This document shows, in pieces, positions 2,642 through 56,866 of a stretch of 64,000 bases of DNA. The first letter of the stretch is position 1, and the number at the start of each line of letters is the position of its first letter. Source of the DNA: an uncultured Phycisphaeraceae bacterium. GTDB lineage: Bacteria > Planctomycetota > Phycisphaerae > Phycisphaerales > UBA1924. The stretch covers positions 1,872 through 65,871 of the forward strand of contig CAYWRO010000011.1 of the NCBI GenBank assembly GCA_964460345.1, in the 5' to 3' direction. The notes below the pieces were generated by a model. It saw only the letters and a program-made list of their open reading frames with translations, was not told the DNA's origin and did not search any database. Made by a program: the position numbers and the translations under genes.

Positions 2642-4129
2642 ATGAACCGTCATTCGTTACGAGGCACGCTCGGTCGTTCCGCTGCGCTCACGGCGGCCCT
2701 CAGCGCAGTCGCGCTGTCGGCGCCGCTGGCGCTGGCCGACCGCCAGGATGTCACACCGGAACAGGCGATCGCGACGGCCGAAGCGCTGTCGGTCGCGTTT
2801 GAGCGGGCGGCGGCCCAGGTACGGGACTCGGTCGTGAGCATCACGACGCGTCGCGAGCCGGAGCAGCGGCAGCAGCCGATGCGCCAGCCCTTCCGCAACA
2901 GCCCCTTCCGCGACTTCTTCGGCGACGACTTCTTCGAGCGCTTCGAGATGCCGCCGCAGCAGCCCCAGATGGGGCAGGGCTCCGGCTGGATCTTCCGCGA
3001 AGACGGCTACATCGTCACCAACGCGCATGTGGTGGCGGGCGCCGACACCGTGACGGTGCAGTTCACGGACGACCGCCAGATGGAGGCCGAGGTCGTCGGC
3101 GTCGACCGCCAGACGGATGTGGCCGTGCTGAAGGTCGACCAGTCCGGCCTGGCGGCGGTGCAGATCGGCGACTCCGATGATCTGCGGATCGGGCAGTGGG
3201 TGATCGCGGTGGGCACGCCGTTCGGACTCGATTCGACGATCACGGCGGGCATCGTCAGCGCAACGGGGCGCTCGCGCGTCGGGCTGGCCGACTATGAGGA
3301 CTTCATCCAGACCGATGCGGCGATTAACCCCGGCAACTCCGGCGGGCCGCTGGTGAACCTGCGCGGCGAGGTCGTGGGGATGAACACCGCGATCTATACG
3401 CAGAACACCTTCGGCGGCCGCGGCGGCAACATCGGGATCGGCTTCGCCATTCCAATGCGGATGATCCAGGCGGTCGCCGCGGACCTGATCGAGGACGGCC
3501 AGGTGACGCGCGGCTTTTTGGGCGTGAACATCCAGGATTTGTCGGAGGGGCTTGCGCAGTCGTTCGGCTTCTCCGGGACGGAGGGCGTGCTGGTGGCGGA
3601 CGTCGTGGATGGCACCCCCGCGGCGGAAGCGGGCCTCCAGAGCGGGGACATCATCACGAGCATGAACGGGCGGAAGGTGTCGGACATGAACGACCTGCGG
3701 ATGCGGGTCGCCTCGACCGAGCCAGGCACGGAGGTGGAGTTCACCTTCTTCCGCGAGGGCGTTGAGAAGCAGGCGACGATCACGATCGGGAAGCTGGATG
3801 CGGAGCAGCCGGTCGCCTCGCGGCGCTCGGAGGGGCGGCTGGAGGCGAATCTGGGGCTGACGGTGCAGACCCTGGACGCGGCGACGGCGCGGCAACTCGA
3901 GGTGGATCCGAACCTCGGCGGGGCGGTGGTGATGAACGTGCAGCCCGGCAGCGACGCCCAGCAGGCGGGGCTGATGCGGGGCGACATCATCCTCCGGGTG
4001 GGCCAGGAGCGGGTGCGAACCGCGGAGGAACTGCGGTCCGCCCTCGCCGAGCATGACCTTAAGGAGGGCGTGCGGCTGACTGTGCGGACCGGGACGGCGA
4101 ACCGGTTCGTGTTCCTGCAGGCGAGGTAG
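2642..4129 (+). CDS. HtrA/DegP-family periplasmic serine endoprotease with two PDZ domains
   Basis: Catalytic triad contexts TNAHVV, DVAVLKV and GNSGGPLVN, followed by two PDZ-like segments. A signal-like N-terminus (MNRHSLRG..ALSAPLALA) supports the start at 2642 rather than 2582. Confidence 0.9.
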   Translation: MNRHSLRGTLGRSAALTAALSAVALSAPLALADRQDVTPEQAIATAEALSVAFERAAAQVRDSVVSITTRREPEQRQQPMRQPFRNSPFRDFFGDDFFERFEMPPQQPQMGQGSGWIFREDGYIVTNAHVVAGADTVTVQFTDDRQMEAEVVGVDRQTDVAVLKVDQSGLAAVQIGDSDDLRIGQWVIAVGTPFGLDSTITAGIVSATGRSRVGLADYEDFIQTDAAINPGNSGGPLVNLRGEVVGMNTAIYTQNTFGGRGGNIGIGFAIPMRMIQAVAADLIEDGQVTRGFLGVNIQDLSEGLAQSFGFSGTEGVLVADVVDGTPAAEAGLQSGDIITSMNGRKVSDMNDLRMRVASTEPGTEVEFTFFREGVEKQATITIGKLDAEQPVASRRSEGRLEANLGLTVQTLDAATARQLEVDPNLGGAVVMNVQPGSDAQQAGLMRGDIILRVGQERVRTAEELRSALAEHDLKEGVRLTVRTGTANRFVFLQAR

Positions 4130-4552
4130 CACTCTGGCGCAGCGAGCGCGCTGCGCCCATGCTTAGACAGTGGTTTGACGCGACCGGTGCACCTGTGTGC
4201 GCCGGTCGCTGTTATTTTGGTGTGCGGGCACGCGCGTCGCTGAGGGGCCAAAAACGCGTTGGCGCAGCGGAAAACAGGGTGGAAGTGCTACTTTCGCAAA
4301 TTGGGCATTTGGGCGGGAGGGTGGAAACGGAACCCATCATGTACACCATCGTAAATTTGGGGTAAGTTTCCCAAGCCAAGGGAAAAGCCGCGTCGGGAGG
4401 ACGCATCCCAACCGGAGCGGCACGGGGCAAGCGGCGAGAGGACAAGGGCGCGACCAACGGGGCGTTCAGACGAGCCCGGCGGAGCCGGGACGGGTGTTCG
4501 CTGTTTCCTGCGGCCGCACGAGCATTGACACTCAAGGAAGGGGGCCTTTGAA

Positions 4553-4810
4553 ATGCCCGCACGCAGAACGATGGAAATGCACCGTTTCACACTCGCCTGT
4601 GTTGCCGCCCGAGTCAGCCATGGGCAGCAGGGGGTGGGCTCAACGACGAGCCGCCGCGGCACCGATCCGCGGATCACGTATGAAATCATCGCCCCCCGCG
4701 GCGACTATGCCGGGGCCCGGGCACGCGCCTTCGCCCAGTTCAAGGCGGAGTTCGGCGCTGATTCCTCCCCGCGCCTGATGGGGTGGTCGATCGGCCCCTG
4801 CCTGAACTGA
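4553..4810 (+). CDS. Hypothetical small protein (85 aa), weak call
   Basis: ORF preceded by AAGGAAGGGGG about 10 nt upstream, with mostly G/C third positions. A strong hairpin plus T-tract follows at 4911-4953. No recognisable motif. Confidence 0.3.
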   Translation: MPARRTMEMHRFTLACVAARVSHGQQGVGSTTSRRGTDPRITYEIIAPRGDYAGARARAFAQFKAEFGADSSPRLMGWSIGPCLN

Positions 4811-4910
4811 CTCTCCAGGATTTCCCGGGCCTCCTGCCCGCGGCTGCGGCCTGCGAGAGACCGAGCCGCGGGCAGGCGGACCCTGCTCGCACGACAACCA
4901 AGCTCCTGGC

Positions 4911-4953
4911 GCGGCCGGCCTCCCTCTCTCTCCTGTGGGCCGGCCGCTTCTTT
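4911..4953 (+). terminator. Intrinsic-terminator-like hairpin
   Basis: GCGGCCGGCC (4911-4920), 17-nt CT-rich loop, GGCCGGCCGC (4938-4947), then TTCTTT. Confidence 0.5.
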
Positions 4954-5009
4954 GCGCGCGGGCTGTGGCGGAAGAGCAACCGGCGTGGTCCGGAGCGGGT
5001 ACGACCCGC

Positions 5010-5816
5010 ATGATTCCACCTTCTGCAACTGCTGCTGCTTCCGCCGCGGGTTCGGCTTGGGCGCAGCCCGTGACCCGGGCACGATTGATCGACACGCTGA
5101 CGCACGCCCTGCGCGAGGATGAAGCCGTTCTCGCGGCATGGCTGGGGGGCTCTGACGCCAACGCCCGAGCGGACGACTTGTCCGATGTCGACCTCTGCCT
5201 GATCGCGGCGGACGGTCGAGTCGAGGAGGCGTTCGCGGCGACGGAGCGGGCGCTGGAGTCGCTGTCACCGATCTCGCGTCGCTACCGACTGCCCTCGCCG
5301 ACGTGGCACGGGGCGGAGCAGTGCTTCTACCAGCTCCGCGATGCGCCGGAGTGGGTGATGGTCGACCTGTGTGTCTTCGGGCGCTCGCAGGAGCACCAGT
5401 TCTTTGATGGATCCCGGCACGGCGCGCCGGTGGTGCTCTTCGACCCGGAAGGGTTGGTGCGGCCTGTTGCGGGAGACGAGGCCGCGCGGGATGCCGCGAT
5501 TCGCAAGCGGGTTGAGGATCTGCGGGCCCGCTTCGAGCTGCTGGCGCACCTGCCGGTGAAGGAAGTACAGCGCGGCCGGAGCGTCGATGCGCTGGCGTTC
5601 TATCACTCGCTGGTGCTGCGGCCGCTGGTGGACCTGCTGCGCATCCGCTACTGCCCGGACCGGTACGACTTTTCGATGCGATACCTGGATGCGGATCTGC
5701 CCGCTGAGATTGCCGGGCGCGTGAAGCGCCTTGCGTTTGTGGGGGAGGCGGCGGAGATCCCGCCGCGTGTGGCGGAGGCGAGGCAGTGGTTCGCCGAGGT
5801 GATGGCAAGCCTCTGA
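5010..5816 (+). CDS. Nucleotidyltransferase-domain protein (Pol-beta-fold NTase, aminoglycoside-adenylyltransferase-like)
   Basis: NTase signature LGGSDANARADDLSDVDLCLI. The track start at 4935 overlaps the terminator hairpin, so I prefer the ATG at 5010. Confidence 0.7.
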   Translation: MIPPSATAAASAAGSAWAQPVTRARLIDTLTHALREDEAVLAAWLGGSDANARADDLSDVDLCLIAADGRVEEAFAATERALESLSPISRRYRLPSPTWHGAEQCFYQLRDAPEWVMVDLCVFGRSQEHQFFDGSRHGAPVVLFDPEGLVRPVAGDEAARDAAIRKRVEDLRARFELLAHLPVKEVQRGRSVDALAFYHSLVLRPLVDLLRIRYCPDRYDFSMRYLDADLPAEIAGRVKRLAFVGEAAEIPPRVAEARQWFAEVMASL

Positions 5817-5846
5817 TGCGCGGGGAGGCGGAGCTACCCTTCCGCA

Positions 5847-6734
5847 ATGCCCTCCGCGTATGACCTCATCGCCATCGATCTTGATGGCACGCTGCTGGAC
5901 CCGGCCGGCCAGGTTCGCGACGCCGAAGTCGCGGCGATCGAGCGCGCGCGCGAGGCCGGGGTGGTGGTGACGGTCTGCACCGGGCGCGGCCTCGTGGAGT
6001 GCCGCGGCATCCTGGATGCGATCCGTCAGGCAGAGCCGGTGGTGGTGGCCAGTGGGGCGATTCTCGCCTCGCCCGTGAGCGGGGCGACGATTCACCGGTT
6101 TCCAATGGACCTTGGGCTGGTGCGGCGGCTGGCCGCTTCGATGCTGGCGCACGACCATGCCGTGCTCGTCCTGAAGGATGCGGCCGAGGTCGGGTACGAC
6201 TACCTCGTTGTGTCGCCGAAGGGGATGCGGGCGGTCAGCCCGGTGTCGCTGTGGTGGTTTGAGCAGCTTAAGGTGCGAGTGCGCTTCGCGGCGTCGCTGG
6301 AGGAGGATGAGCATCCGGAGCACACCGTGCGCGTGGCGGTCTGCGGGATGCGGCGCGAGACGGAGCAGGTGGCGCGGGAGGTGCGCGGGGAGTTTGATCG
6401 CGAGATCACGGTGCATCATTTCGCCGCGGTCGTGCCGGATGGGGATCCGGACAACCCCGATGACCAGGTCGTGATCCTGGAGACGTTTGATCCGCGTGTG
6501 AACAAGTGGACGGCGATTGAATGGTTTGCGCGGCAGCGCGGGCTGGATGCAGGGCGCGTTGCCACGATCGGCAACGATGTGAACGACCTGGTGATGCTCG
6601 AGAAGAGCGCGCTGGGAGTTGCGATGGGGAATGCGATTCCCGATGCGAAGGCCGTCGCGGACCGCGTCACGGTCGACAACGATGCGGGCGGCGTGGCGCA
6701 CGCGATCGACCGGATTCTCGCGGGAGAGTGGTGA
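5847..6734 (+). CDS. Cof-type HAD-IIB family hydrolase (sugar phosphatase-like)
   Basis: HAD motif I IAIDLDGTLL, motif II TVCTGRG, motif IV GNDVNDLVMLEKSALGVAMGNA. Confidence 0.85.
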   Translation: MPSAYDLIAIDLDGTLLDPAGQVRDAEVAAIERAREAGVVVTVCTGRGLVECRGILDAIRQAEPVVVASGAILASPVSGATIHRFPMDLGLVRRLAASMLAHDHAVLVLKDAAEVGYDYLVVSPKGMRAVSPVSLWWFEQLKVRVRFAASLEEDEHPEHTVRVAVCGMRRETEQVAREVRGEFDREITVHHFAAVVPDGDPDNPDDQVVILETFDPRVNKWTAIEWFARQRGLDAGRVATIGNDVNDLVMLEKSALGVAMGNAIPDAKAVADRVTVDNDAGGVAHAIDRILAGEW

Positions 6735-6744
6735 GTAACGGTGT

Positions 6745-7590
6745 ATGCAGACGGTTTCGCAGATCAGGGCGATGCTGGATGAGCGCGGGCTGCGGCCGAA
6801 GCGATCGCTCGGGCAGAACTTTCTGATTGACCAGAACCTGATCCGCAAGCTGGTCGACGCCGCGGGCGTTGGAGTGGGCGACACAGTTCTGGAGGTTGGC
6901 CCCGGCACGGGGACGCTGACGGAGGAACTGCTTGCCCGCGGCTGTCGCGTGATCGCGAGCGAGCTGGATGATGCGCTGGCGGACCTGCTGCAGGAGCGGG
7001 CGGAGCGCATGGTCGCAACCAGCGGGGCGGCGGGGGCGAGCCTTTCGGTCGTGCGCGGCGACTGTTTAAAGAGCAAGCGGGAGATCAATCCGGCAGTGCT
7101 GGAGGCGCTGGGGGATGGGCCGTTTTCGCTGGTCGCGAACCTGCCGTACGGCGCGGCGACGCCGCTGCTGCTCACGCTGTTGACCGAGCACTCACGCTGC
7201 GGGGTGATGGCGGTGACGATTCAGCGCGAGGTCGCCGACCGACTGCTCGCGAGCCCGGGCACGAAGGAGTACGGGCTGCTGACGGTGCTGGCGCAGGCGA
7301 TGGCGCATGTCGAGCGGCTGGCGACGCTGCCGCCGTCGTGCTTCTGGCCCGCGCCGGAGGTGAGCAGCGCGATGGTGGTGCTGCGCCGGCGCGCGGCGGG
7401 CGAGGCGTTGACCGATGACCCGGCCTCGTTGCGTGAGACGTGCGAGCGCCTGTTCGCCTCGCGGCGCAAGCAGATCGGCGGCGTGCTGGGGCGTGAAGCG
7501 GTGCTGCCGGACGGGGTGACGCCGTCGATGCGGGCGGAGGAGTTGACGCCGGAGCAGTTGGTGGAGATTAGTGGGCGGCAGGGGAAGTGA
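6745..7590 (+). CDS. rsmA: 16S rRNA (adenine1518/1519-N6)-dimethyltransferase
   Basis: LGQNFLID, SAM-binding EVGPGTGTLT and VANLPYG motifs; 281 aa. Confidence 0.92.
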   Translation: MQTVSQIRAMLDERGLRPKRSLGQNFLIDQNLIRKLVDAAGVGVGDTVLEVGPGTGTLTEELLARGCRVIASELDDALADLLQERAERMVATSGAAGASLSVVRGDCLKSKREINPAVLEALGDGPFSLVANLPYGAATPLLLTLLTEHSRCGVMAVTIQREVADRLLASPGTKEYGLLTVLAQAMAHVERLATLPPSCFWPAPEVSSAMVVLRRRAAGEALTDDPASLRETCERLFASRRKQIGGVLGREAVLPDGVTPSMRAEELTPEQLVEISGRQGK

Positions 7591-7631
7591 GGCTGTGCGG
7601 GTTAGGACGTCTGCACGGCTGCGCCGCGGAG

Positions 7632-7695
7632 TACCGCGGCGAGCCGTGGCACCCATCGCGATGTACCGCGTCGAGCCGTGGCACTTATCGCGGTG
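7632..7695. repeat. Two tandem copies of a 32-bp unit in the convergent rsmA/mcsB spacer
   Basis: TACCGCGgCGAGCCGTGGCACccATCGCGatg (7632-7663) and TACCGCGtCGAGCCGTGGCACttATCGCGgtg (7664-7695). A CCGCGG-agta-CCGCGG hairpin precedes them at 7624-7639. Confidence 0.7.
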
Positions 7696-7719
7696 ACGCG
7701 TCGGATCGGGGCGCCCGGT

Positions 7720-8931
7720 TCACGTCGGCGTCGAGTTTGAGTCCTTTTCTCCACCCAGCCAGCGTCTGACGAGGTCGGCGCGCGCCTCGCGCCGCTCGTT
7801 CTGGTCCATCACGCGTCCGGCGACGCGTTGCAGGTGGGCCGGCTGCGTCAGGAGAAGCAACTGGTTCACATCGCTGATGCGGACGTCAGGGATGAGTTCC
7901 GTCAGAATGCCAAGCCGCACGTAGCTGAGCAGCGTCAGCGATTCCTCGGCCGTCAGGAGCCGCGCGTAACGGAGCGTGCCGAGGGCGCGGAGGACCTGGT
8001 CCTCCAGCCACCGGCGGCGCTTGCTCAGAAGCTGCTGCCGCGAGGCGCGCTCATAGAGCAGGACTTTCGGAAGGATCTCGCGCGAAAGCTCGTGCAGGAT
8101 GACGCGCTCGGATTTGCCGAGTGTGGTCTGGTTGGAGACCTGGTAGAAGTCGCCGACGTTGTCGGAGCCTTCGCCGTAATAGCCGCGGACCGCCAGCGAC
8201 ATGTCGCGCGCGGCGCGCTTGACCTTCTCGAGTTCTCCCATGAGTCGGATCGCCGGAAGGTGAAGCATCACGGAGACGCGGATGCCGGTGCCGACATTGG
8301 TGGGGCAGGCGGTCAGGTAGCCGAAGCGGTCGTCGTACGCGAAGCCCGGCCCTTCCTGGCCGGGGGCTGCCGCGGCGTCTCCCGCGCTTTCGTCCGCGCC
8401 GCCGTGGCGGGCGAGTTGGTCATCGACCTTGTCGATCTGCGCAAAGGCATTCTCAAGGGCCAGGCCCGGACGAATCACCTGGATGCGCAGGTGGTCCTCC
8501 TCGTTGACCATGATGGAGAGCTGTTCATCGGGGAGGGAGATCGCGACGCCGCGGGGCTCGTGTCCCTTGGCGTGGTCGCGCGAGATCAGGTGCCGCTCGA
8601 CCATGAGCGTGCGATCGAGTGCGGTGGCGCGATGGATGTGGACCCAGAGCAGCTTGTCGGCGGGGCGGGCGCTCATGATGCGCTGCCTGGCGAGGTCGAG
8701 CAGGGCCTGGCGCTGCGCCAGGCTGGCGCGCGAGAGGAAGGGGAAGCCCTCGAAGTTGCGCGCAAGACGCACGCGTGAGGAGACGACGACGTCGGCCTCC
8801 GCGCCCGCGCCGCTGAGCCAGCCGGCGCCGTGGCGGATCTGGTCCGGTGAAAGCGACGGTTGCGGCCGGCCCTCGCCGGGATTGGGCGAGCCGGCGGGCT
8901 GCGGTGTCGAAGGGGGCAGAGACTCAGGCAT
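7720..8931 (-). CDS. mcsB: Protein arginine kinase McsB (ATP:guanidino phosphotransferase family)
   Basis: Guanidino-kinase signature YLTACPTNVGTGIRVSVMLHLP, plus EEDHLRIQ and VSSRVRLARN. The 584-aa track ORF 7720..9474 is an in-frame upstream read-through. The ATG at 8931 overlaps the mcsA stop by 8 nt. Confidence 0.88.
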   Translation of the reverse strand: MPESLPPSTPQPAGSPNPGEGRPQPSLSPDQIRHGAGWLSGAGAEADVVVSSRVRLARNFEGFPFLSRASLAQRQALLDLARQRIMSARPADKLLWVHIHRATALDRTLMVERHLISRDHAKGHEPRGVAISLPDEQLSIMVNEEDHLRIQVIRPGLALENAFAQIDKVDDQLARHGGADESAGDAAAAPGQEGPGFAYDDRFGYLTACPTNVGTGIRVSVMLHLPAIRLMGELEKVKRAARDMSLAVRGYYGEGSDNVGDFYQVSNQTTLGKSERVILHELSREILPKVLLYERASRQQLLSKRRRWLEDQVLRALGTLRYARLLTAEESLTLLSYVRLGILTELIPDVRISDVNQLLLLTQPAHLQRVAGRVMDQNERREARADLVRRWLGGEKDSNSTPT

Positions 8932-37635: not shown

Positions 37636-40149
37636 ATGCCCCACAGCACACCACGAGCCCAGCCGCCCGGACACTTCACCGACGATGGTCGACGCTTTGC
37701 GATCGCCCGGCCCGACACGCCGACGCCGTGGGTGAACGTCATCTCCAACGGGCGCGACGAGGACGGTTATGGACTCGTCGTCAGTCAGGCTGGCGGCGGG
37801 TTCTCGTGGATGGGCAACAGCCAACTCAACGTGCTGACGCGCTGGGAGATGGACCTGGTGCAGGACCGCCACGGCAAGTTCCTGTACCTGTGCGACCTTG
37901 ACGCTGACACGACCCGGCCTGGAAGGCCGGCCTACCCCGAGGTGTGGTCGCTCGCCCCGGCGCCGTGCCGCCCCGCGTACGACTCGTACCGGTGCGAACA
38001 CGGTCCGGGCGCGAGCGTGTTCACGACCGAGTGCCGCGGCATCCGGGCGCGCTGGACGCTGACGGTCAGCCCCTCTGATCCGGTCGAGATCTGGGCGGTC
38101 GAGCTTGAGAACGTCTCCGGGCGCGACCGCCGGCTGCGCATCGCTTCGTATTTGGAGTGGTGCTGCGGAGTTGCGCCGGATTCCAAGCGCGAGTTTCACC
38201 GCCTGTTCATCACGACGAAGCATGATGCGCAGCGCCGGGCGATTTTGGCGACGAAGAACATGTGGGACGTTCCGCCCCGGCACGAAGGGGAGCACTGGAA
38301 TCGCCCCTGGCCGTATGTTGCCGCGCACGCGGTGAACCTTGAAGCCGGCAGGGCGTTTGAGCGTGAGATTGCGATCGGCGACAAGACGCTCTTCATCGGG
38401 CGCAACGGGGACACCCACGCGCCGGCTGCGCTGGCTGCGCCGCCGGAGGCGGGGGCCGGCATCGGCCGGTTCGCGGACGGCATCGCGTCCCTTGGGGGGG
38501 ACTTCACGCTTGAAGCCGGGGAAACGATCCGCCTCTCCTACCTCCTGGTGTGCGCGGAGGATGAGCAGCGCGTTCTGAGTCTGCTGGACCGCTACGCGAA
38601 TCTGCGCATCGTGGACGAAGCGATTGAAGCGGCGGAAACCGCGTGGGAAGACCGGCTCAGCACGACGCGCATCAACACGGAGCGGGCGGACTTCGACCTG
38701 CTCAACCACACGTGGCTGCCGTACCAGGCGATCAGCGGACGGATGTGGGGTCGCACCGGGTACTACCAGCAGTCCGGCGCGTTCGGCTTCCGCGATCAGC
38801 TTCAGGACAGCCAGGTGTGGCTCCCGATTGATCCGCAGCGCACGGCCGAACAGATCCTGCTGCATGCCGCGCACCAGTTTGCTGACGGAAGCGTCTATCA
38901 CTGGTGGCACCCGTTGACCGAGAGCGGGCTGCGCACTGCGTGCAGCGACGACTATCTCTGGCTTCCCTTCATCACGGCTTCCTACATCCGCGAGACAGGC
39001 GACGCATCGATCCTTGAGCAAGTGGCGCCGTTTGTGGATGACAAACGTCCGGCGACACTGCTTGAACACTGCAAGCGCAGCGTCGCACGCGCGTTCTCGC
39101 GCATGTCGCCGCGCGGGTTGCCGTTGATCGGATCCTGCGACTGGAACGATGGGCTCTCGGCGATGGGGATCGAGGGCCGCGGCGAATCGGTGTGGCTTGC
39201 ATTCTTCCTGGCGGAGCTGTTGCAGCAGTTCACGCATGCGCTGCGGCTGATCGACGACGACGTGACGGCCCACGACTGGCTCGCCGGGCGCGACAGGCTC
39301 GTTCGCGCCGTGAACCAGCACGCGTGGGACGGCGCCTGGTTCCGGCGCGCGACCAACGACGATGGGGAGTGGATCGGCTCATCGCGGAATAATGCGGGGC
39401 GCATCTACCTGAACCCGCAGACCTGGGCCATTCTTACCCGCGGCAGCACCGCCGAACGTCTCACTACGGCGTGGGAGAGCGTGAAGGAACACCTGGTCCG
39501 CGACATGGGGCCGCTGCTGCTCGCCCCCGCGTATTCGGTGCCGGACCCGTCAATCGGCTACATCACGCGCTACACGCCGGGCTCGCGCGAGAACGGGGGC
39601 GTGTACATGCACGCCGCAACATGGGCGCTCGCCGCGGCGTGCGCCATGCAGGACCGCGAGACAGTCGGGCGGATCTGGGAGTCCATCTCGCCGCCGGCGC
39701 GCTCGGCGCGTGATCCGGAGCTCTATGCGGCGGAGCCGTACGTGACGCCCGGGAACGTGGACGGCCCGGATTCGGCCACGCCCGGCCGGGCCGGTTGGAC
39801 GTGGTACACGGGGTCCGCGGCGTGGCTGAACCGGGTGTCGCTCGAAGGCATTCTGGGGATCCGGCCCACCTGGGAGGGGCTGAGCATCCGGCCGTGCGTG
39901 CCGGCGTCGTTCGGCAAGGTGGAGGCCAGGCGCCGCTGGCGGGGCGTGGATGTCGTGGTGCGGTTTGACGCTGCGGCGTGGTCGAGCGTGGAGCCGCGAC
40001 TGACGGTCAACGGAGCTCCGATCGCCGGGTGCACGCTGCGGGCGGAGGATATCGTGGGTCTGAAGGAAGTCGTCGTCGATCTTGACTGGGGCGTGCAGAC
40101 GCGGCCGGTTCTCGGCCAGGTCGGCGCCCCCGGGAGGGCCACTCCATGA
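37636..40149 (+). CDS. GH94-family glycoside phosphorylase (cellobiose/beta-glucan-oligosaccharide phosphorylase type)
   Basis: 837 aa. [48 protein letters not shown] and WYTGSAAW align with the cellobiose-phosphorylase sequence I recall. Confidence 0.88.
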
Positions 40150-40952
40150 GCGCCCAGACAGAACATCGGGTGGCACGGGCAACGCTTCTTGCCTGTGCGC
40201 GGCAGTCGAGACAGCAGGCGCAGCGCACCTGCGGCGCTTTCACGCTGATCGAACTGCTGGTCGTGATCGCGATCATCGCGCTGCTCATCTCGATCCTGCT
40301 GCCCGCGCTGGAGGGGGCGCGCCGCAGCGCGTGGGATGTTCTGTGCCAGAACAACCTGCGCCAGATTGGGATTGCGATGCAGGTGTACATGGATGAGCAG
40401 GACGATCCTCGCTATCCGGACCTGTACCCGCGTCATCCCAACGCGCGCGATCAATGGAACATCATTCCAACGCTGGAAGAGTACCTCGGTGCTGATCCGA
40501 GCATTCTCAACCGCGGTCTGGCGACGGAGGAGTTCGTCGGCGCAGCGCCCAACAAGATTTTTGCCTGTCCGGCCGCACGGGGCGAAGCGAGCGTGACGGA
40601 CCCATACACGCGCGCCTTCCTGGAGAGCGGCGGGCGCATCTTCGTCTGGGACTATGACCGGGACGGCAAGGACGATTACATTACTGAATACTGGTTCAAT
40701 GACTCGCCGATCCAGAGCCAGGGCAATGTTCGGAGCGGCGTCTCCAACCAGTTCATCCGCGCCATGAAGCGGCCTGAGAATGTCGTTTGGGCAACGGACG
40801 CGTACGACGAGGTTCCGCGGCACGATGGCGAGAACTTCTTCCTGTTCGGCGACCAGCGCATCGAGCGGCTGACGCGCGCTGAGTATTACGGACCGGACCA
40901 GTATGGCGCTCCCCAGCCGTTCTACAACTGGGGTCACTACTACCCGAACTAG
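40146..40952 (+). CDS. Prepilin-type N-terminal cleavage/methylation domain protein (pseudopilin-like, H-X9-D C-terminal motif)
   Basis: [26 protein letters not shown] plus the C-terminal [18 protein letters not shown] overlap with the GH94 stop. Confidence 0.85.
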
Positions 40953-41355: not shown

Positions 41356-42885
41356 ATGCGCAGCGATCTCAAGCCGCTGACCGTCACCCGCCGCGCCGCC
41401 ATCGGCGCGCTCGGGGCGGCGGCGCTCGGCTTTGCGGCGTTCGGCCCGCGTCCGCGGCGTGAGCGCGTGGATGGGCGCATCGTGCTCGACTACTGGGAGA
41501 AGTGGACCGGCCACGAGGGCGCGGCGATGCGCGCGATCGTGGATGAGTTCAACGAGTCGCAGTCAGATTGCTACGTCCGCTATTTCGCGATGAGCGCGAT
41601 TGATCAGAAGGCGCTCATCGCCATCGCGGGCAACTCCCCGCCGGACATCCTCGGCCTGTGGAACTTCAACATCCCGGCGTACGCCGAATCCGGCGCCCTC
41701 ATGCCGCTGACGGAAATGGCCGCCGCGGCGGGGCTGACGCGCCAGCGGTACGCGGCGGGGGTGTGGCCGCTCATCACGCATCAGGATCAGCTCTGGGGGC
41801 TGGTGAGCACGTGCGGCAGCATCGCCCTCTTCTACAACCGCGCGTTGTTCCGTGAGGTCGGACTCGACCCTGACCGCCCGCCGCGGACGATTGAGGAACT
41901 GGACGAGTACAACCGGCGGCTGACGGTTGTGGAGGGCGGCGGTGGGGCGGGGAGTGGGGGTGGCGGCGTCAAGGGCGGGCGGATCGCGCGCATGGGCTTC
42001 ATCCACACGGAGCCGGGGTGGTGGAGCTGGCTGTGGGGGTACTTCTTTGGAGGCACGCTCTACGAACCGTGGCGCCGGCCTCTGGCCGGTGAGGAACTGT
42101 GGCACCGGCCTCTGGCCGGTGAAGGAGAGAACCAAAGCAACCGAGCCGGTGAGCCTCTAGAGGCGGACGTCACCGGCCAGAGGCCGGTGCCACGGGGCGG
42201 GCGCGCCACCGCGGCGAGCGCCGCGAATGTACGCGGGTACGAGTGGGTGCAGACGTGGCCGGAGCGGTTCGGTGTCGAGGCGCTGCAGACCTTTCAGAGC
42301 GGGCTCGGCTTTTACGGCAGCGCTGAGCATCCGTTCCTGACCGGGCGCGTGGCGATGACGAACCAGGGGCCATGGCTGGCGAACAACATCGTGGCGTTCA
42401 AGCCGGATCTGGACTACGCCGCAGCGCCGTTTCCGGTGGCAAGCGAGTTGTATGACCCCCAGCAACCGATTGGGCTGCTGGATGCCGATGTGCTCGTGAT
42501 CCCGCGCGGAGCTCGGCGCCCGGAGCTGTCGTTCCGGTTTATCGAGTATTGCCAGCAGCAGGGTGTGATGGAGCGGCTTGCGCGGGCGCACTGCAAAAAC
42601 TCACCGCTGGCCGTGTCTTCGTCGGCGTTTCTCGAGGACCATCCGCACCGTTCCATTCGCGCGCACGACGCCATCGCCAACAGCCCGCGCGCGTTCGTCT
42701 TTCCGCGCACGCGCACGTGGCCGCAGTATGAGGCGGACTTCAACGCGGGGATGCAGCGCATGTGGACACTGGCGGCCGATGCAGCCACGACACTGAAAAG
42801 GATCGAGCGCCGCGCCCAGGCGGCGATCGATCATGCCGCCCGGCAGCGCGAGCGCCGGGCGCGCCTGAAGGAACAGTCCTCGTGA
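41356..42885 (+). CDS. Carbohydrate ABC transporter substrate-binding protein (family 1) carrying an in-frame repeat insertion
   Basis: Tat-like leader TRRAAIGALGAAALG and typical SBP_bac_1 segments (LDYWEKW, PPDILGLWNF). Followed by two MalF/G-type permeases. Confidence 0.85.
   Translation: MRSDLKPLTVTRRAAIGALGAAALGFAAFGPRPRRERVDGRIVLDYWEKWTGHEGAAMRAIVDEFNESQSDCYVRYFAMSAIDQKALIAIAGNSPPDILGLWNFNIPAYAESGALMPLTEMAAAAGLTRQRYAAGVWPLITHQDQLWGLVSTCGSIALFYNRALFREVGLDPDRPPRTIEELDEYNRRLTVVEGGGGAGSGGGGVKGGRIARMGFIHTEPGWWSWLWGYFFGGTLYEPWRRPLAGEELWHRPLAGEGENQSNRAGEPLEADVTGQRPVPRGGRATAASAANVRGYEWVQTWPERFGVEALQTFQSGLGFYGSAEHPFLTGRVAMTNQGPWLANNIVAFKPDLDYAAAPFPVASELYDPQQPIGLLDADVLVIPRGARRPELSFRFIEYCQQQGVMERLARAHCKNSPLAVSSSAFLEDHPHRSIRAHDAIANSPRAFVFPRTRTWPQYEADFNAGMQRMWTLAADAATTLKRIERRAQAAIDHAARQRERRARLKEQSS
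42069..42193. repeat. Palindromic (REP/RPE-like) element: two direct and one inverted copy of a 24-nt self-hairpin unit
   Basis: GTGGCgCCGGCCTCTGGCCGGTGA at 42069-42092, GTGGCACCGGCCTCTGGCCGGTGA at 42099-42122, and its exact reverse complement at 42170-42193. A central 12-bp palindrome GCCTCTAGAGGC lies between them. Confidence 0.85.
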
Positions 42886-44837: not shown

Positions 44838-45569
44838 ATGTTGACACGTCTGACGGCAGCCACCCTCGGTCTCGCGGCGCTGGCCACCCCGACTCTGGGC
44901 CAGAACCTCATCTACAACCCCAGTTTCGAGGAACTGAACGTCCTCGGCCCTGTCGGCTGGCGGGCGTTCAACTCCGCCCGGTACCGCACGACCACAGACG
45001 GCCTCACGCCGGCAGTGACCCCCCGTACGGGTGACGTCTGCATCGAGCTCGTCGGAGACGGGAGTACCGACTTCTCCGCCTTCACTACGGACGTCTTCAA
45101 CCCAATCGAGGCCGACTTCTACAACCCGGATCTGGAGGTCCCCAGCGGGGACGTCACCGTCACCGGCTGGTACATGATTCCCGCCGATCGTCCGCTGACG
45201 GACGCCGCGGGCATTAAGCTCGAGTTCCGGCGCGAGAACAGTTCAATCTGGCAGGCGATCGAGACGCGCACGATTACCGGTCACACGAACGGCGAGTGGG
45301 TGCAGTTCAGCGTGACCATCCCGGCCGGCGACCTCGACCCCTCCAACCAGGGCGGGGATCCGCCGACGCAGGTCAGCGTTCTGCCTCTGTTCTTTTCACC
45401 CGGCGGCGTCGAGACCGGCACGATCTTCTGGGACGATTTTGAACTGACGCAAGGCGAGCCGCCCTGCATTCTCGAAGGCGACTTGAACAACGACGATGTC
45501 GTCGACGTCTTCGACCTGCTCGCCTATCTCGACATCTGGTTTGATGAGAGCGCCAACGGCTGCCCGTAA
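44838..45569 (+). CDS. Secreted carbohydrate-binding-module-like protein with a single GC-type dockerin repeat
   Basis: AAAGGAGG RBS, signal ..LATPTLGQ, NLIYNPSFEE start typical of CBM4/9-like jelly rolls, and the tail [33 protein letters not shown]. Confidence 0.7.
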   Translation: MLTRLTAATLGLAALATPTLGQNLIYNPSFEELNVLGPVGWRAFNSARYRTTTDGLTPAVTPRTGDVCIELVGDGSTDFSAFTTDVFNPIEADFYNPDLEVPSGDVTVTGWYMIPADRPLTDAAGIKLEFRRENSSIWQAIETRTITGHTNGEWVQFSVTIPAGDLDPSNQGGDPPTQVSVLPLFFSPGGVETGTIFWDDFELTQGEPPCILEGDLNNDDVVDVFDLLAYLDIWFDESANGCP

Positions 45570-45594
45570 GCGGCAGCAGCTATTGTCGAAGTCG

Positions 45595-47601
45595 ATGTGT
45601 ATGCCCCGTTCCATCCGAACCGCGGCCGTCTACCTGGCGGCCGCGGTTCTCTTCATGCTGCTGGCGGTTTCCGGGGCGCAGGCCTGTCCCGTTACGGTGA
45701 CGCCGCCCGCTGGCGCGACGCTCGAGCGGTCGGTATTTGCTGTAACCGAGTTCGCAAACCTCACCTACCACGACAGCTTCTCCGGCCAGGTTGGCCAGAC
45801 CGCGACGTGGCCCGGCGAGATGGGGTGGCAGGGGGATCGCATCGATGTCGGCTTCATAGTGCCAGAGCTTCCCGCCGGCGAGGCCGAGCCGCTGCACTAC
45901 CGGCTGTCGATTCAGATCACCCAGCAGTTTGCGCAAGAGTTCCATCTGGCAGTGCTTGTCGGCGCAGACGCGGCCGACCTGGAAGAGGTCCACCGGGAGT
46001 TCATCGATTCACCACGCACGTATGTGGCGTTGATTCCCGCGTGCCAGCTCACACCGGGCGGGCAGAACCTGATCCGTCTTCAGGGAGTCGGCGTGAGTGT
46101 CGGCTTCGGCGAAGCGCCTGGTGTTCTGTGGAGCAACTGGAGCCTCGCAGCGGTGCACGAGGCAGATCTGGATGCCGTGCGCGCCGATCAGCTTCAGCGC
46201 CTGACGACGTACATCACGGATGCAATCACGCCCTCCGGCCTGGTTCGCGACACACTGCCGCTTTCGCCGGACGTCGCGGCGACCCCGGCCACGCCGGATG
46301 CCGCGGGCTTCGCCCTGCTTGGTCTCGCCGCGGCGGACCACCTCGGTCTGATCGCCGATGCGCCGGATCGCGTGCGTTCCATCCTCCGCGCTTACGCGGG
46401 GTACGCGCCGGGCGTCACGCCGCAGCGGTCCGCGGATGGATTCTGGATTCACTACATGGATCCGGCCACCGGCCGGCATCCCGGCGGCGGCTACGACAGT
46501 GCGTACACGCCGATCGGCGCAGCGCTGCTTGTGACAGGCGCCCGCTTCGCGGCGAATCACTTCATCGACGATGCCGAGATCAACGAACTCGCTGCGGAGC
46601 TCGAAGCAACGGTCGACTTTGACGCGGCGATTCATCCGTCTCTTGACGGCCGCATCTTCCTGAGCATGGCCCCGGGCGGTGGGGGGGATACCAACTTTGG
46701 CGTCACGCGCCCGTGGAATGAGTACATGCTCGTCGTTTCCGCGGCGTTACGCCAGCCTGGGCCCGCGCCCCGGGCCCAGGCGGTGCGCCACCTGTGGATG
46801 AATCCCGCGAACCTGCCGCGGGCCAGCCACAACGGCATCAGCACGCTGACCGATGTGCCCGGCGTCTTCGCGCCCGCGTTCTGGGTTCATCAGAGCCACT
46901 ATTTCAACGCGGACTTCTCAACGGATGCGGCGCTGACGCCGTTCTTTACCAATCACCGCGTTGCGGATCGGGTCTACTGCCTGGATGCGCTCAGCGAGCC
47001 ATTTCGTTACGGGCTGACCGCCGGCCCGACTCCCGGCGGCTACGGCGTCGAGCGCATCGGCAACAACAATCGCGTCTTTTCTCCCGAGGCGGTCGCGGCG
47101 TGGGGAGACATGGACACGTTGCTGAAGTTTTACGCGGCGCAGCCGATCGCTCCCTCCGACCCGCGCGCCCGGTACGGCATGGTCCGCGTCAGCGCCATCG
47201 ACCCCGGATGGATCCCACCCGATGCGCCGCTGGTCGATCACCTCTTCCTCATGTTCGGTCTCGTGGAGAGCCTCGACCCGGTCTTCTTCAAGCAGCGCCA
47301 ACCCGGGCAGATCGACGCCGATGCGGACGGCATCGCCGATGCGTTCGACAACTGCCCGGGGCTCTACAACCCGGCTCAATCCGACGCCGATGCCGATGGA
47401 ACAGGTGATGCGTGCGACTGCACGCCGGACCTGACCAACGACGGTACCGTCGATGTCTTTGACCTGTTGGCGTATCTCGATCTCTGGTTCGCTGCGGATC
47501 CAGCCGCCGACCTCGTGAACGGTGGCGGAGCGACCGTGGTCGATGTGTTTGACCTCCTGGCTTATCTCGACTCCTGGTTCGCGCCGCCCGCCGCCTGCTG
47601 A
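45595..47601 (+). CDS. Secreted (alpha/alpha)6-type glycoside-hydrolase-like protein with TSP3-type Ca-binding repeats and GC-type dockerin
   Basis: Signal peptide; central region resembling the glucoamylase/GH144-like fold (weak, by eye); DADADGIADAFDNCPGLYNPAQSDADADGTGDACD; tail [14 protein letters not shown]...VDVFDLLAYLDSWF. Confidence 0.7.
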   Translation: MCMPRSIRTAAVYLAAAVLFMLLAVSGAQACPVTVTPPAGATLERSVFAVTEFANLTYHDSFSGQVGQTATWPGEMGWQGDRIDVGFIVPELPAGEAEPLHYRLSIQITQQFAQEFHLAVLVGADAADLEEVHREFIDSPRTYVALIPACQLTPGGQNLIRLQGVGVSVGFGEAPGVLWSNWSLAAVHEADLDAVRADQLQRLTTYITDAITPSGLVRDTLPLSPDVAATPATPDAAGFALLGLAAADHLGLIADAPDRVRSILRAYAGYAPGVTPQRSADGFWIHYMDPATGRHPGGGYDSAYTPIGAALLVTGARFAANHFIDDAEINELAAELEATVDFDAAIHPSLDGRIFLSMAPGGGGDTNFGVTRPWNEYMLVVSAALRQPGPAPRAQAVRHLWMNPANLPRASHNGISTLTDVPGVFAPAFWVHQSHYFNADFSTDAALTPFFTNHRVADRVYCLDALSEPFRYGLTAGPTPGGYGVERIGNNNRVFSPEAVAAWGDMDTLLKFYAAQPIAPSDPRARYGMVRVSAIDPGWIPPDAPLVDHLFLMFGLVESLDPVFFKQRQPGQIDADADGIADAFDNCPGLYNPAQSDADADGTGDACDCTPDLTNDGTVDVFDLLAYLDLWFAADPAADLVNGGGATVVDVFDLLAYLDSWFAPPAAC

Positions 47602-47603
47602 GC

Positions 47604-47688
47604 GTGGCACCGGCCTCTGGCCGGTGACGGGGACGAGGCGCTGGCGGTGGGACCATTCCTACACACACCGGCCAGAGGCCGGTGCCAC
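47604..47688. repeat. Intergenic copy of the palindromic element (24-nt terminal inverted repeats, 38-nt core)
   Basis: GTGGCACCGGCCTCTGGCCGGTGA at 47604-47627 is identical to 42099-42122. CACCGGCCAGAGGCCGGTGCCAC lies at 47666-47688. The element starts 3 nt after the upstream stop codon. Confidence 0.85.
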
Positions 47689-53638: not shown

Positions 53639-56600
53639 TCACCAGTCCAGCGTTCCGCGCCAGGCTCGCGCCAGCTCCTCGACGCCCGCTTCCTCATCGA
53701 CATCCCCCTCCAGCCGCAGGACGCCGTCGTCGGTGGTCTCGCCCAGGCGCGTCAGGGAGACATCGCGCGTCTCCATGAGCTGGAAGAACTTGCCGTGATG
53801 CTCCGGCGTGATCTCGAGGATGTATGCGCCCGGGCGCTCGCCGAACGCCCGCGCCATCTCCGGCTCGATGAGCGTGAAGGTCGCCCCGATCGGCGACTCC
53901 GGCGTTGAGCCGGCAATCAGCATCTCCGCGACCGCGCACAGCGCGCCACCGTCCGACACATCATGTGCGGACGCCACGAGCCCAAGTCGGATCGCCTCGG
54001 CCACGGCCTTCGCCACGCGCGGGCACCACTCCAGGTCCACGAACGGCATCAGCCCGGCCCCGTCCGTCTTCGGCAGTCCGAAGAGGCGCTCGTAGTGTGA
54101 CCCGCCCAGGCGCACGCCGTTCGGCGCATCCATCTCCCGCTCGTGCGGCTCGACGAGATACAGGTGGTTGCCCGGCCGCTTGGCATCCATGCTCACGGAT
54201 CGTGACACATCCTCCACGATCCCCACGCCGGAGATCAGCAGCGTCGGCGGGATCCGGATCTTGCGCCCATCTTCCATCGTGAACTGGTTGTTCAGCGAGT
54301 CCTTTCCGCTGATGAACGGCGTGCGGTACGCCTTCGCCCCGTCGTAACACCCCTCCGCGGCCCGCACCAGCCACCCCATCGACTCAGGATCGTCGCACGA
54401 CGGCCAGCAGAAGTTGTCCAGAATTGCAATCCGATTCGGGTTCGCCCCGGTGCAGACCAGGTTGCGCACGCACTCGTCGATCGCCGCGAGCGTCATCTGG
54501 TAGGGATCGCCGCCGCGGGCCGGGTCGCCGATGCCTGTCGCCAGTCCGCACGCGATGGCCAGACCCTTGTCCGACCCGGCGACGGGCTTGATCACCGCGG
54601 CGTCCGAGGGCCCGCGCCCCAGGGGTCCGACCAGCGGCTTGCCGACGGTTCCGCCCCGCACCTCGTGGTCGTACTGCCGGATGATCCAGTGCTTGCTGGC
54701 AATGTTCGGATGGGCCAGAAGCTTCAGCAGCGCCTCCCGCGGCGAGGGAGTTCTACTCTGCGCGCCTCCCTGCCGCCTTACCTCCGCGCCCCTTGCCCTC
54801 CATGCTGCTTCGCGCGTGACCTGCGGGATCCCCTCGTGCAGGAATGCCATCGGCAAGCGTCCGACTTCCTGCCCGTTGTAGTTCAGGATCAACTCCCGTC
54901 CCGGCGTGCCGAAACGACCGAGCACGGCCAGTTCGACGTGCTCTTCATCGCAGATCCGCTGCAGCGCCGCAAGGTTCTCCTCGGGCACCGCCAGCACCAT
55001 GCGCTCCTGCGCCTCGCTGATCCAGATCTCCGTGTAGGTGAGCCCCTCGTACTTGAGCGGCGCCCGCTCCAGGTGGACCTCGGCCCCGAGCTTCTCGCCC
55101 ATCTCGCCGACCGCCGATGAAAACCCGCCCGCTCCGCAATCGGTGATGGCGCTGAAGAGGGGCGCCGACACCGGCGAGACGCCTGTGCCACTCTTCCCTC
55201 CGCCCCCCCGTGCGCGCATGATCGCATCCAGCAGCCGCTTCTCCTCGATCGGGTTGCCGATCTGCACCGCGTGCGCGAACTCGTCCGCGTGCGTGTCGGT
55301 CAGCTCCGCGCTGGAGAACGTCGCGCCGTGGATGCCGTCCCGCCCCGTCCGTCCGCCCATCGCGACGATCAGGTCGCCCTCCTTCGCCTCTCCTTTGATG
55401 AGATCCGCCGGCATCACGCCGATGCACCCGCAGAAAACCAGCGGATTCCCGACGTACCGGTCATCGAAGTACACCGCGCCGTTCACCGTCGGGATGCCCA
55501 TCCGGTTCCCGTAGTCGCGCACGCCCGCGACCACCTGCGTCAGGATCCGCCGCGGATGCAGGCAGCCGGCCGGAAGCGTGTCGCCATCCCCATTGGCCTC
55601 GGCGCTCCAGTGTTCCGGGAATGCCACGCAGAACACATCCGTGTTCGCCACCGGCAGCGCCGCCAGCCCCGTGCCCATGATGTCGCGGATGCACCCGCCC
55701 GCGCCGGTCGCTGCGCCACCGTACGGCTCGATCGCCGAAGGATGGTTGTGCGTCTCCACCTTCACGCACACCGCGTGCTGATCGTCGAACCGGATGATCC
55801 CCGCATTGTCGACAAACACCGAAAGCGTCCAGTCCACCCCGTCGGCGATCAACTCGTGCGTCGCCGCGGCGACCGTGTGCTTCAGCAGGTTGTCGATCGT
55901 GACCGACCCGTCGGCATTCACCGTGTGCCCCGGACGATTGTTCCAGTCGATCACCGCCGGCCCGGGAGCGTCGGTCGACTGCGTGCCCTGGCCGGTCTCC
56001 CGCGTCCCCTTTCCGCTGGAGGTAAACGCAAACGAAACGTCCCCGTCTGCTTTCTGTCCCCTTGTGCTGTTCCCCTGTCCCTCTTCTGGAACGGCCTCCT
56101 CCCAATACACAACCCGGCTCTTGAGCGTCTTGTGAACACAGTGTTCCGACCAGGTCTGCGCCAGCGTCTCCAGTTCGATGTCCGTCGGCTCGCGCCCCAG
56201 CCGCTGGTACTCCGCCTGGATCGTCTTCATCTCCTCCAGCGACAGGAACAGGTGAGCCTCGCGCGACAGCTTGGCAAGCTGCGCATCGCTCAGGTCGCGG
56301 ATGGCGATGTGCCGCAGCACGGACTCGCGCTTCACGCCCCGCGGCAGCGATTCCGGCGTAAACGGCGTGTCATGGATCGCGTGGATCACGGTGTTGGCCA
56401 GCAGCCGCTCGGCGAGACGCCGAGACTCGGCCTGGTCGATCCCCGCCAGTTCGTACCGCCACCCCGTCGCAACCGCCGTCTCCACGCCGGCAAGGTCCTT
56501 GATCGCTTCCCGCACCGACTGGGCCACCGGGTCCATCACCCCCGGCAGCGGGTGTACCTCGATCAGCGAGCCGCCTTCCCCCGCCGGCGTCGCCCCGATC

Positions 56601-56866
56601 CTCACCTCCTCCGTGACCGGGTCCGCCAGCAACTGCTCCGCCACCGTCCGCCGCTGCCGCTCGTCCAACTCACCCTGTACCAGGTAGACACGCGCGGTCC
56701 GCGCCGCGGCAAGCTCCACGCCAATCGCCCGCGCATCGCGCACGAGCGACGCCGCGGCGGGGTCGCCGATCCCTTCCCGAGGCCGGACCTCAAACCGATG
56801 AACCGGGGCGCTGGCCGGGACAGTGGGGGAGGTGGCGGACGTCGACGGTGGAGAGAGCGTGCTCAT
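53639..56866 (-). CDS. purL: Phosphoribosylformylglycinamidine synthase, PurS-PurL fusion type
   Basis: 1075 aa. N-terminal PurS-like repeats, then WSEHCVHKT, VETHNHPSAIEPYGGAATG and the duplicated AIR-synthase-like fold. Confidence 0.92.
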   Translation of the reverse strand: MSTLSPPSTSATSPTVPASAPVHRFEVRPREGIGDPAAASLVRDARAIGVELAAARTARVYLVQGELDERQRRTVAEQLLADPVTEEVRIGATPAGEGGSLIEVHPLPGVMDPVAQSVREAIKDLAGVETAVATGWRYELAGIDQAESRRLAERLLANTVIHAIHDTPFTPESLPRGVKRESVLRHIAIRDLSDAQLAKLSREAHLFLSLEEMKTIQAEYQRLGREPTDIELETLAQTWSEHCVHKTLKSRVVYWEEAVPEEGQGNSTRGQKADGDVSFAFTSSGKGTRETGQGTQSTDAPGPAVIDWNNRPGHTVNADGSVTIDNLLKHTVAAATHELIADGVDWTLSVFVDNAGIIRFDDQHAVCVKVETHNHPSAIEPYGGAATGAGGCIRDIMGTGLAALPVANTDVFCVAFPEHWSAEANGDGDTLPAGCLHPRRILTQVVAGVRDYGNRMGIPTVNGAVYFDDRYVGNPLVFCGCIGVMPADLIKGEAKEGDLIVAMGGRTGRDGIHGATFSSAELTDTHADEFAHAVQIGNPIEEKRLLDAIMRARGGGGKSGTGVSPVSAPLFSAITDCGAGGFSSAVGEMGEKLGAEVHLERAPLKYEGLTYTEIWISEAQERMVLAVPEENLAALQRICDEEHVELAVLGRFGTPGRELILNYNGQEVGRLPMAFLHEGIPQVTREAAWRARGAEVRRQGGAQSRTPSPREALLKLLAHPNIASKHWIIRQYDHEVRGGTVGKPLVGPLGRGPSDAAVIKPVAGSDKGLAIACGLATGIGDPARGGDPYQMTLAAIDECVRNLVCTGANPNRIAILDNFCWPSCDDPESMGWLVRAAEGCYDGAKAYRTPFISGKDSLNNQFTMEDGRKIRIPPTLLISGVGIVEDVSRSVSMDAKRPGNHLYLVEPHEREMDAPNGVRLGGSHYERLFGLPKTDGAGLMPFVDLEWCPRVAKAVAEAIRLGLVASAHDVSDGGALCAVAEMLIAGSTPESPIGATFTLIEPEMARAFGERPGAYILEITPEHHGKFFQLMETRDVSLTRLGETTDDGVLRLEGDVDEEAGVEELARAWRGTLDW

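Follow-up and report, generated by a model that had tools for sequence, protein, structure and literature searches.

Repetitive extragenic palindromes (REPs) and their doublets (REPINs) are defined by a GT(A/G)G tag at the 5' end, a short stem-loop, an arrangement as inverted doublets and a position just downstream of open reading frames (ORFs) (PMC3733652; PMC3116915). A variant of the tag that reads GTGG has been documented for some families (PMC3733652). Here we describe repeats of this type in a 64-kb stretch of DNA from a Phycisphaerae-like planctomycete (contig CAYWRO010000011.1), referred to as the window throughout. Within the window, the gene of an ABC-transporter solute-binding protein (SBP) contains a palindromic block of 129 nt, which at a probability of about 0.85 represents a cluster of GTGG-tagged REPs, i.e., a REPIN-type inverted doublet plus one duplicated unit, and a non-autonomous mobile element.

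Intragenic REPs with GTAG and CGTC tags were catalogued by Di Nocera 2013 (PMC3733652). [quoted passage not shown] REP families together with several genes for REP-associated tyrosine transposases (RAYTs) have been described in Rhodopirellula baltica and Planctomyces species (PMC3733652). In the literature searched, the term REP was not found paired with Phycisphaerae.

The classic in-frame palindromic inserts are the Rickettsia palindromic elements (RPEs; Ogata 2000, as cited in PMC3733652 and PMC10969869). Two of these, RPE-4 and RPE-6, correspond to CGTC-tagged REPs inside genes of R. conorii, and CGTC repeats have no associated RAYT (PMC3733652). [quoted passage not shown]

Architecture of the palindromic block in the SBP gene

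The host gene (41356..42885, plus strand) encodes a protein of 509 residues with matches to Pfam SBP_bac_1 (3.6e-20) and SBP_bac_8, which span residues 60-402 and extend to both sides of the insert; two permease genes follow downstream. The palindromic block covers positions 42067-42195 of the plus strand, corresponding to 43 codons (residues 238-280), as delimited by its inverted repeat. Its outer arms (42067-42092 and 42170-42195) comprise 26 nt each and are 96% complementary. Folding of the block yielded -54.8 kcal/mol for DNA (z = -8.8) and -97.3 kcal/mol for RNA (z = -8.3). In line with the original prediction, made from the DNA letters and their translations, the ORF is open through the block, which is translated as ...LYEPWRRPLAGEELWHRPLAGEGENQSNRAGEPLEADVTGQRPVPRGGRA... 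without a stop.

The block is built from a 24-nt unit, GTGGCACCGGCCTCTGGCCGGTGA, with the layout GTGG-CACCGGCC-TCT-GGCCGGTG-A. Every unit shows a GTGG head, a perfect 8-bp stem and a 3-nt loop. These features fall within the range of REPs, which are palindromic units of 20-40 nt with a stem of 5-13 bp and a 5' GTAG tag or its GTGG variant. A unit scan allowing up to three mismatches returned five matches in the window, compared with 0.01 expected from 100 dinucleotide-preserving shuffles. Three of them lie in the SBP gene, namely unit 1 (GTGGCGCCGGCCTCTGGCCGGTGA, one mismatch) at 42069-42092 and unit 2 (exact consensus) at 42099-42122, both on the plus strand, and unit 3, an exact inverted copy identified also by inverted-repeat analysis, at 42170-42193 on the minus strand. 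The predicted set of two direct units and one exactly inverted unit was hence recovered, with one mismatch in the first direct copy, as was the predicted perfect palindrome among them: GCCTCTAGAGGC at 42153-42164 lies in the 47-nt spacer of units 2 and 3 and forms a small inner hairpin.

The two direct units had been taken as separate copies and turned out to be parts of a tandem duplication on the plus strand. Two 30-nt copies, 42064-42093 and 42094-42123, follow each other at a spacing of 30 nt and are identical at 27/30 positions. Both start with GAAC, the GAA of the first copy being the conserved Glu codon of the LY[D/E] motif that the host has in common with the orthologues; GAAC is absent before the unit at the other loci compared. 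The likeliest history is therefore the insertion of an inverted doublet followed by an in-frame 30-bp duplication, and a tandem duplication of 10 codons after the insertion is probable.

A second doublet occupies an intergenic position at 47604-47688, beginning 3 nt past the stop codon of the ORF 45496..47601. It consists of an exact unit on the plus strand (47604-47627), a 37-nt spacer and an inverted unit with one mismatch (47665-47688), and its RNA fold reaches -69.4 kcal/mol (z = -7.6). The identical intergenic unit that had been noted 5.4 kb from the block does exist, yet it is one arm of this REPIN-like doublet and not a lone unit. Inverted unit pairs with a spacer, forming long hairpins, are thus found at both window loci, with z-scores from -7.6 to -8.8. 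A role of the intergenic doublet as an intrinsic terminator was considered and rejected, as it is not followed by a T-run. An Rfam search of the whole window found no family at gathering score, and the block gave only sub-threshold matches to generic hairpins.

Repeats of the REP type break assemblies, and a repeat-induced chimera might have placed REP sequence in the SBP gene. One Logan contig (L022) does end inside the intergenic doublet, at position 47673. Against such an artefact, the identical 509-residue SBP is encoded by nine Logan contigs, and the reading frame and the flanking homology are intact. Each of the four contigs shown stems from a different SRA run, and they deviate from the window by 1-2 mismatches over 6.6-12 kb, which excludes an artefact of a single assembly. 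We therefore regard a misassembly as having a negligible chance of explaining the block.

Absence from orthologues and predicted loop position

The 120 best SBP homologues are mostly 440-470 residues long, and orthologues measure 450-465 residues. Twenty-four homologues with 52-68% identity were aligned, the named ones belonging to Phycisphaerae or Planctomycetota. A gap of 41 columns was present in all 24 orthologues where the window reads WRRPLAGEELWHRPLAGEGENQSNRAGEPLEADVTGQRPVP, in agreement with the expectation that the inserted peptide would be missing from orthologous proteins. One orthologue (P0009) shows a small insertion at the same site.

An AlphaFold2 run on the alignment with the 24 orthologues resulted in a model with a mean predicted local distance difference test score (pLDDT) of 85 and a predicted template modelling score (pTM) of 0.82. 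Residues 246-279 scored below a pLDDT of 50 and are placed between the strands 236-238 and 282-284. The best PDB matches of the model are oligosaccharide-binding SBPs, with 4r9g at the top (TM 0.83, normalised to the target). A sequence search of the PDB left the insert region unaligned, and the location of the loop therefore rests on the AlphaFold2 model and the orthologue alignment. According to the model, the insert is a disordered surface loop in an otherwise confidently predicted SBP fold, which fits the surface loop proposed originally.

Other length variation was seen in this protein family. A G-rich segment of the window gene at 41938-41990 encodes a glycine run (GGGGAGSGGGGVKGG; residues about 195-210) that varies in length among orthologues and has low pLDDT values at residues 197-203; this is a second loop prone to indels, with no relation to the REP. 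Elsewhere, three orthologues (P0028, P0046 and P0049) have in common a different insertion, about 35-55 residues long, which lies in another loop (alignment columns 212-257). In the orthologous SBP P0010 (GCA_964490785.1; L082 2863-3063), a GTGG-tagged hairpin of 30 nt (GTGGCACGCCCTTTCCAGGGCGTGTCTGAA), present 6.7 times in tandem, makes up an annotated C-terminal extension of about 70 residues, in which ARPFQGxSEV is repeated, and the array overlaps the start of the permease. The period of these hairpins, 30 nt, equals that of the duplication in the window.

Copies of the unit in other genomes and metagenomes

Exact-match scans located the 24-mer in 19 stretches of GTDB genomes and in 53 metagenome stretches, which after removal of duplicates amount to 65 distinct external places. 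The GTDB carriers are Desulfobaccales and other 'delta' metagenome-assembled genomes (MAGs), Gemmata/Gemmataceae, Acidobacteria/Terriglobia and one MAG labelled Alcaligenaceae. Together with the intergenic doublet and a sister unit in purL (see below), these places supply the further genomic copies that the original prediction called for.

At 49 of the 65 places (75%) the unit is accompanied by a partner hairpin ending in GTGCCAC. Within 90 nt downstream, the partner is an inverted copy of the 24-nt unit at 24 places and a different hairpin ending in GTGCCAC at 25; the remaining 16 units stand alone within this distance. Coding-like GC content at third codon positions, in one frame on both sides of the unit, was observed at only one place (L006), and the rest are nearly all extragenic. 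Long frames without a stop that run through the unit in GC-rich contigs were considered as well, and a codon-position GC test exposed them as spurious, with the exception of L006.

Insertions in purL, a polyketide synthase and a 5S rRNA gene

In the window, a sister-type unit (GTGGCACAGGCGTCTCGCCGGTGT, 7/8 stem pairs) lies at 55168-55191 on the minus strand, in frame within the housekeeping gene purL (ORF 53639..56866, minus strand), so that two of the three clear REP loci of the window are intragenic. The gene was identified by Pfam AIRS and AIRS_C and by PDB 3viu (1.7e-80). The unit is translated as SGTGVSPVS in the context ...RARGGGGKSGTGVSPVSAPLF... and agrees at 22/24 positions with the REPs on either side of RAYT homologues in L077 and L081. 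At the site of the unit there is a gap of 13 residues in both PDB PurL structures shown, and a gap of 10-15 residues is found there in 37 of the 40 best PurL cluster representatives. As two PurL proteins (P0322 and P0341) have other inserts at this position, the site looks like a recurrent tolerant spot.

The coding copy in L006, from the MAG labelled Alcaligenaceae, is a 54-nt doublet of the 24-nt unit in a modular polyketide synthase (PKS) ORF (3543..7955, minus strand; 1470 residues), with the unit at 5416-5439. The doublet occupies the ACP-KS linker, with the PP-binding domain (768-831) on one side and the KS domain (869-1121) on the other. Its reading frame matches the one used in the SBP, giving ...DLWHRPLAGEGTHRPEAGAT... 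with WHRPLAGE...HRPEAGAT.

A further case concerns a gene for a structural RNA. Among several 5S rRNA gene copies, one in L060 (3269-3429; likewise in L056 near 620) scores 66.4 bits against the full Rfam 5S model, and in this copy 50 nt replace eight model positions at the tip of helix IV. These 50 nt correspond to a REP unit and its partner hairpin. This 5S gene copy carries an inserted REP doublet, and intact copies are located nearby.

A single unit is open in five of its six frames, the sole frame with a stop being GTG GCA ... TGA. For the most part, an insert can therefore survive in frame if its length is a multiple of three and the site tolerates it. Ribosomal bypassing, as known for the GC-rich 'byp' elements of yeast mitochondria, was also considered for the SBP gene and is unnecessary because the frame is open.

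Association of the unit with RAYT transposases

A metagenome contig with a GC content of 0.66 (L063) contains an uninterrupted RAYT frame on the minus strand, which matches the NCBIfam model NF047646 'REP-associated tyrosine transposase' with 97.8 bits (cut-off 80). The frame shows a HUH motif (PDHVHVL) and a tyrosine motif (YDYIRHNPV), and it is flanked by an exact copy of the unit at 19-42 and a one-mismatch copy at 654-677. A GyrB fragment adjacent to the RAYT has named relatives in Phycisphaerae, Tepidisphaeraceae and Planctomycetota, the same group as the named relatives of the window SBP. Homologues of the L063 RAYT with 55-59% identity are present at four further loci, with GTGGCACAGGC(GTCTC or TTCCA)GCCTGTGC as the flanking sequence to one side and its inverse to the other. 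The clade of the L063 RAYT therefore travels with GTGGCAC-headed REPs. Repeat identity, the doublets, the external copies and this unit-flanked RAYT together support the predicted REP-like mobile element in a coding region.

The identity of the 24-mer also bears on the view that the 43 residues are an ordinary lineage-specific SBP loop, with the palindromy and the intergenic match arising by coincidence or by local gene conversion. The site is a variable loop, as illustrated by the small insertion in P0009. However, the exact 24-mer recurs at unrelated intergenic sites, in other phyla, beside a RAYT, in a PKS linker and in a 5S copy, and the chance expectation within the window is 0.01. Given the external copies, an ordinary loop is effectively refuted.

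Alternatively, the doublets might be classical MITEs, i.e., deletion derivatives of a DDE-type insertion sequence (IS) that move by cut-and-paste with terminal inverted repeats, and not REPs moved by a RAYT. MITEs typically have terminal inverted repeats that stem from DDE-type IS, and they are accompanied by target-site duplications. The ends of the doublets are indeed inverted, the spacers vary between copies as in heterogeneous MITE families, and in two Gemmata contigs (L012 and L014) the palindrome reaches well past the units. However, a flanking direct repeat was found at neither window doublet, the flanks reading ACC/GGG and AGC/GGG, and terminal inverted repeats derived from a DDE-type IS were likewise not seen. 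Each arm is in itself a self-complementary hairpin with a GTGG head, which is a hallmark of REPs; single units occur, both in purL and at the 16 external places mentioned above; and the only transposase found beside the unit is a RAYT. No DDE-type parent turned up either, though no specific search for one was made. We consider a MITE origin improbable and favour a RAYT-moved REP cluster.

A RAYT in another contig (L041) was evaluated as the cognate enzyme. It lies about 470 nt from a copy of the unit and was rejected, as it is flanked by a different REP (GTTCCCAAGCTGGAGCTTGGGAAC). Copies of this other REP family (GTTCCCAAGCTNNAGCTTGGGAAC), unrelated to the studied unit, flank a RAYT of their own at 1860-1884 and 2501-2525 (NF047646, 112 bits). 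Since L041 holds the studied unit next to another REP with its own RAYT, several REP/RAYT systems coexist in one genome.

REP-encoded peptides were also encountered at the ends of RAYT proteins. Among the RAYT homologues P0121-P0190 and at the loci L077-L081, many annotated proteins have REP-encoded N-termini (GGTGFQPV, GGTGVSPV) or C-termini (TGQRPVPP, HRPEACAT), the flanking REP being located inside the called ORF. Mis-called starts or read-through are the likely cause.

Proposed route of insertion and consequences for the SBP

The SBP insertion may be explained as follows. On single-stranded DNA, a RAYT of the HUH/Y1 type, encoded elsewhere in the genome, would recognise the hairpin together with the GTGG head and move the doublet. 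One copy of the doublet would have landed in the part of the SBP gene coding for the turn that joins two beta strands. The insert could have persisted because its length keeps the frame, the frame in use is without a stop and a surface loop may tolerate about 40 extra disordered residues. An in-frame 30-bp tandem duplication would then have added the second direct unit. The event in the window's own genome was thus presumably RAYT-mediated transposition.

Several points weigh against this account. A tblastn search of the 64-kb window with the L041 RAYT and an approximate E. coli YafM query gave nothing significant, so that we infer the cognate transposase from another contig (L063); the predicted RAYT was in this respect found beside the unit elsewhere and not in the window. 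With the nearest orthologue about 65% identical and no empty-site allele found, the boundaries of the insertion and the absence of a target duplication are tentative. The two doublets have spacers (47 and 37 nt) that show no sequence relationship to each other, whereas classical REPIN populations have a common spacer. Furthermore, the 64-kb window holds only three clear REP loci and one candidate, so that high repetition in the genome is conjectural.

A last point concerns the consequence of the insertion rather than the nature of the element. A perfect RNA stem of 26 bp in a coding region, in a fold of -97 kcal/mol, could impair expression, and the insertion, through a stable mRNA hairpin or through misfolding, might have inactivated the SBP or lowered its output, leaving a young pseudogene. 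A 26-bp RNA stem is long enough in principle for double-strand-specific RNases. However, the ORF is fully open although only two of the six frames through the 129-nt block are, and the frame is kept by the original length as well as by the 30-bp duplication that came later. In the alignment with the 24 orthologues, nothing is lost from the twin-arginine leader or from any conserved SBP position. The permease gene called downstream and the SBP stop overlap by 4 nt, an arrangement like that of a working operon. The essential purL gene, moreover, has a sister unit in frame. Loss of SBP function or output is unlikely, and the SBP with its insert presumably remains functional.

Comparison with described palindromic repeats

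The window element resembles GTAG/GTGG REPs and REPINs (Nunvar 2010; Bertels & Rainey 2011, PMC3116915; Di Nocera 2013, PMC3733652) in its unit, which measures about 24 nt and combines a GTGG tag at the 5' end with a stem of 6-9 bp and a short loop. Shared traits are also the inverted doublets that form long hairpins, the site just past a stop codon, the unit-flanked RAYT gene as seen in L063 and the occasional intragenic in-frame dimers or clusters that encode 20-80 residues. The peptide GTGVPPV of Opitutus GTAG-19 is close to GTGVSPV of purL in the window. In contrast, the variant CACCGGCC-TCT-GGCCGGTG and its peptides are not in the supplements of PMC3733652, the host is a Phycisphaerae-like planctomycete, the window doublets have unrelated spacers, and the identical 24-mer is common to several phyla.

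RPEs, to which the block had been likened, are also palindromic mobile repeats that lie in frame in genes and add fold-compatible surface peptide segments. This part of the analogy holds, as in-frame insertion with preservation of the host fold is observed for the SBP (by alignment and model) and for purL. It is a functional analogy only: the window unit is GTGG-tagged and not CGTC-tagged like RPE-4 and RPE-6, and RPE-1, with about 100-150 bp, is of another sequence family, which places the window element outside the RPEs.

The suggestion that such an insertion was new to the lineage went too far, considering that intragenic in-frame GTAG/GTGG REPs and REP families of Planctomycetes were described in 2013 (PMC3733652). 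The SBP insertion adds one more example to a phenomenon known from other bacteria and widens the record of intragenic REPs to a Phycisphaerae-like planctomycete. It provides a clean natural case in which a mobile hairpin repeat adds about 40 residues to a periplasmic binding protein. For annotators, peptide strings such as WHRPLAGE, TGQRPVP, GTGVSPV and GTGFQPV represent translated REPs when they occur in proteins of planctomycetes, acidobacteria and deltaproteobacteria.

One aspect possibly worth a dedicated study is the identity of the unit across phyla. REP sequences are usually lineage-specific. The RAREFAN preprint describes REPIN-RAYT systems as mostly vertically inherited. We put forward as a speculative and rather doubtful idea that a single GTGGCAC-headed REP/RAYT lineage with an identical 24-nt unit might extend across Planctomycetota (Phycisphaerae-like and Gemmata), Desulfobacterota, Acidobacteriota and the Alcaligenaceae-labelled MAG, inserting with unusual tolerance into SBP and PurL loops, a PKS linker and a 5S rRNA gene copy. 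If true, this would point toward a REPIN-RAYT system that spreads horizontally, unlike the mostly vertical inheritance described, and make REPs a recurrent source of new protein and RNA loops.

Additional observations in the window

The candidate REP locus is a GTGG-tagged hairpin (GTGGCACGGGCAACGCTTCTTGCCTGTGCG) at 40170..40199 on the plus strand, with a 9-bp stem containing one mismatch and a 6-nt loop. It is situated within the N-terminal leader of a DUF1559/N-methyl protein (ORF 40146..40952). The hairpin is possibly a REP that has degenerated, and the real start of the ORF may lie downstream of the annotated one.

In the same gene, all four Logan contigs L020-L023 start within 25 nt of each other (window 40250-40274), in the segment that encodes the conserved N-methyl/FTLIELLVV motif of DUF1559 proteins. 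Their shared start probably reflects an assembly break at a multi-copy paralogous motif, and not a REP.

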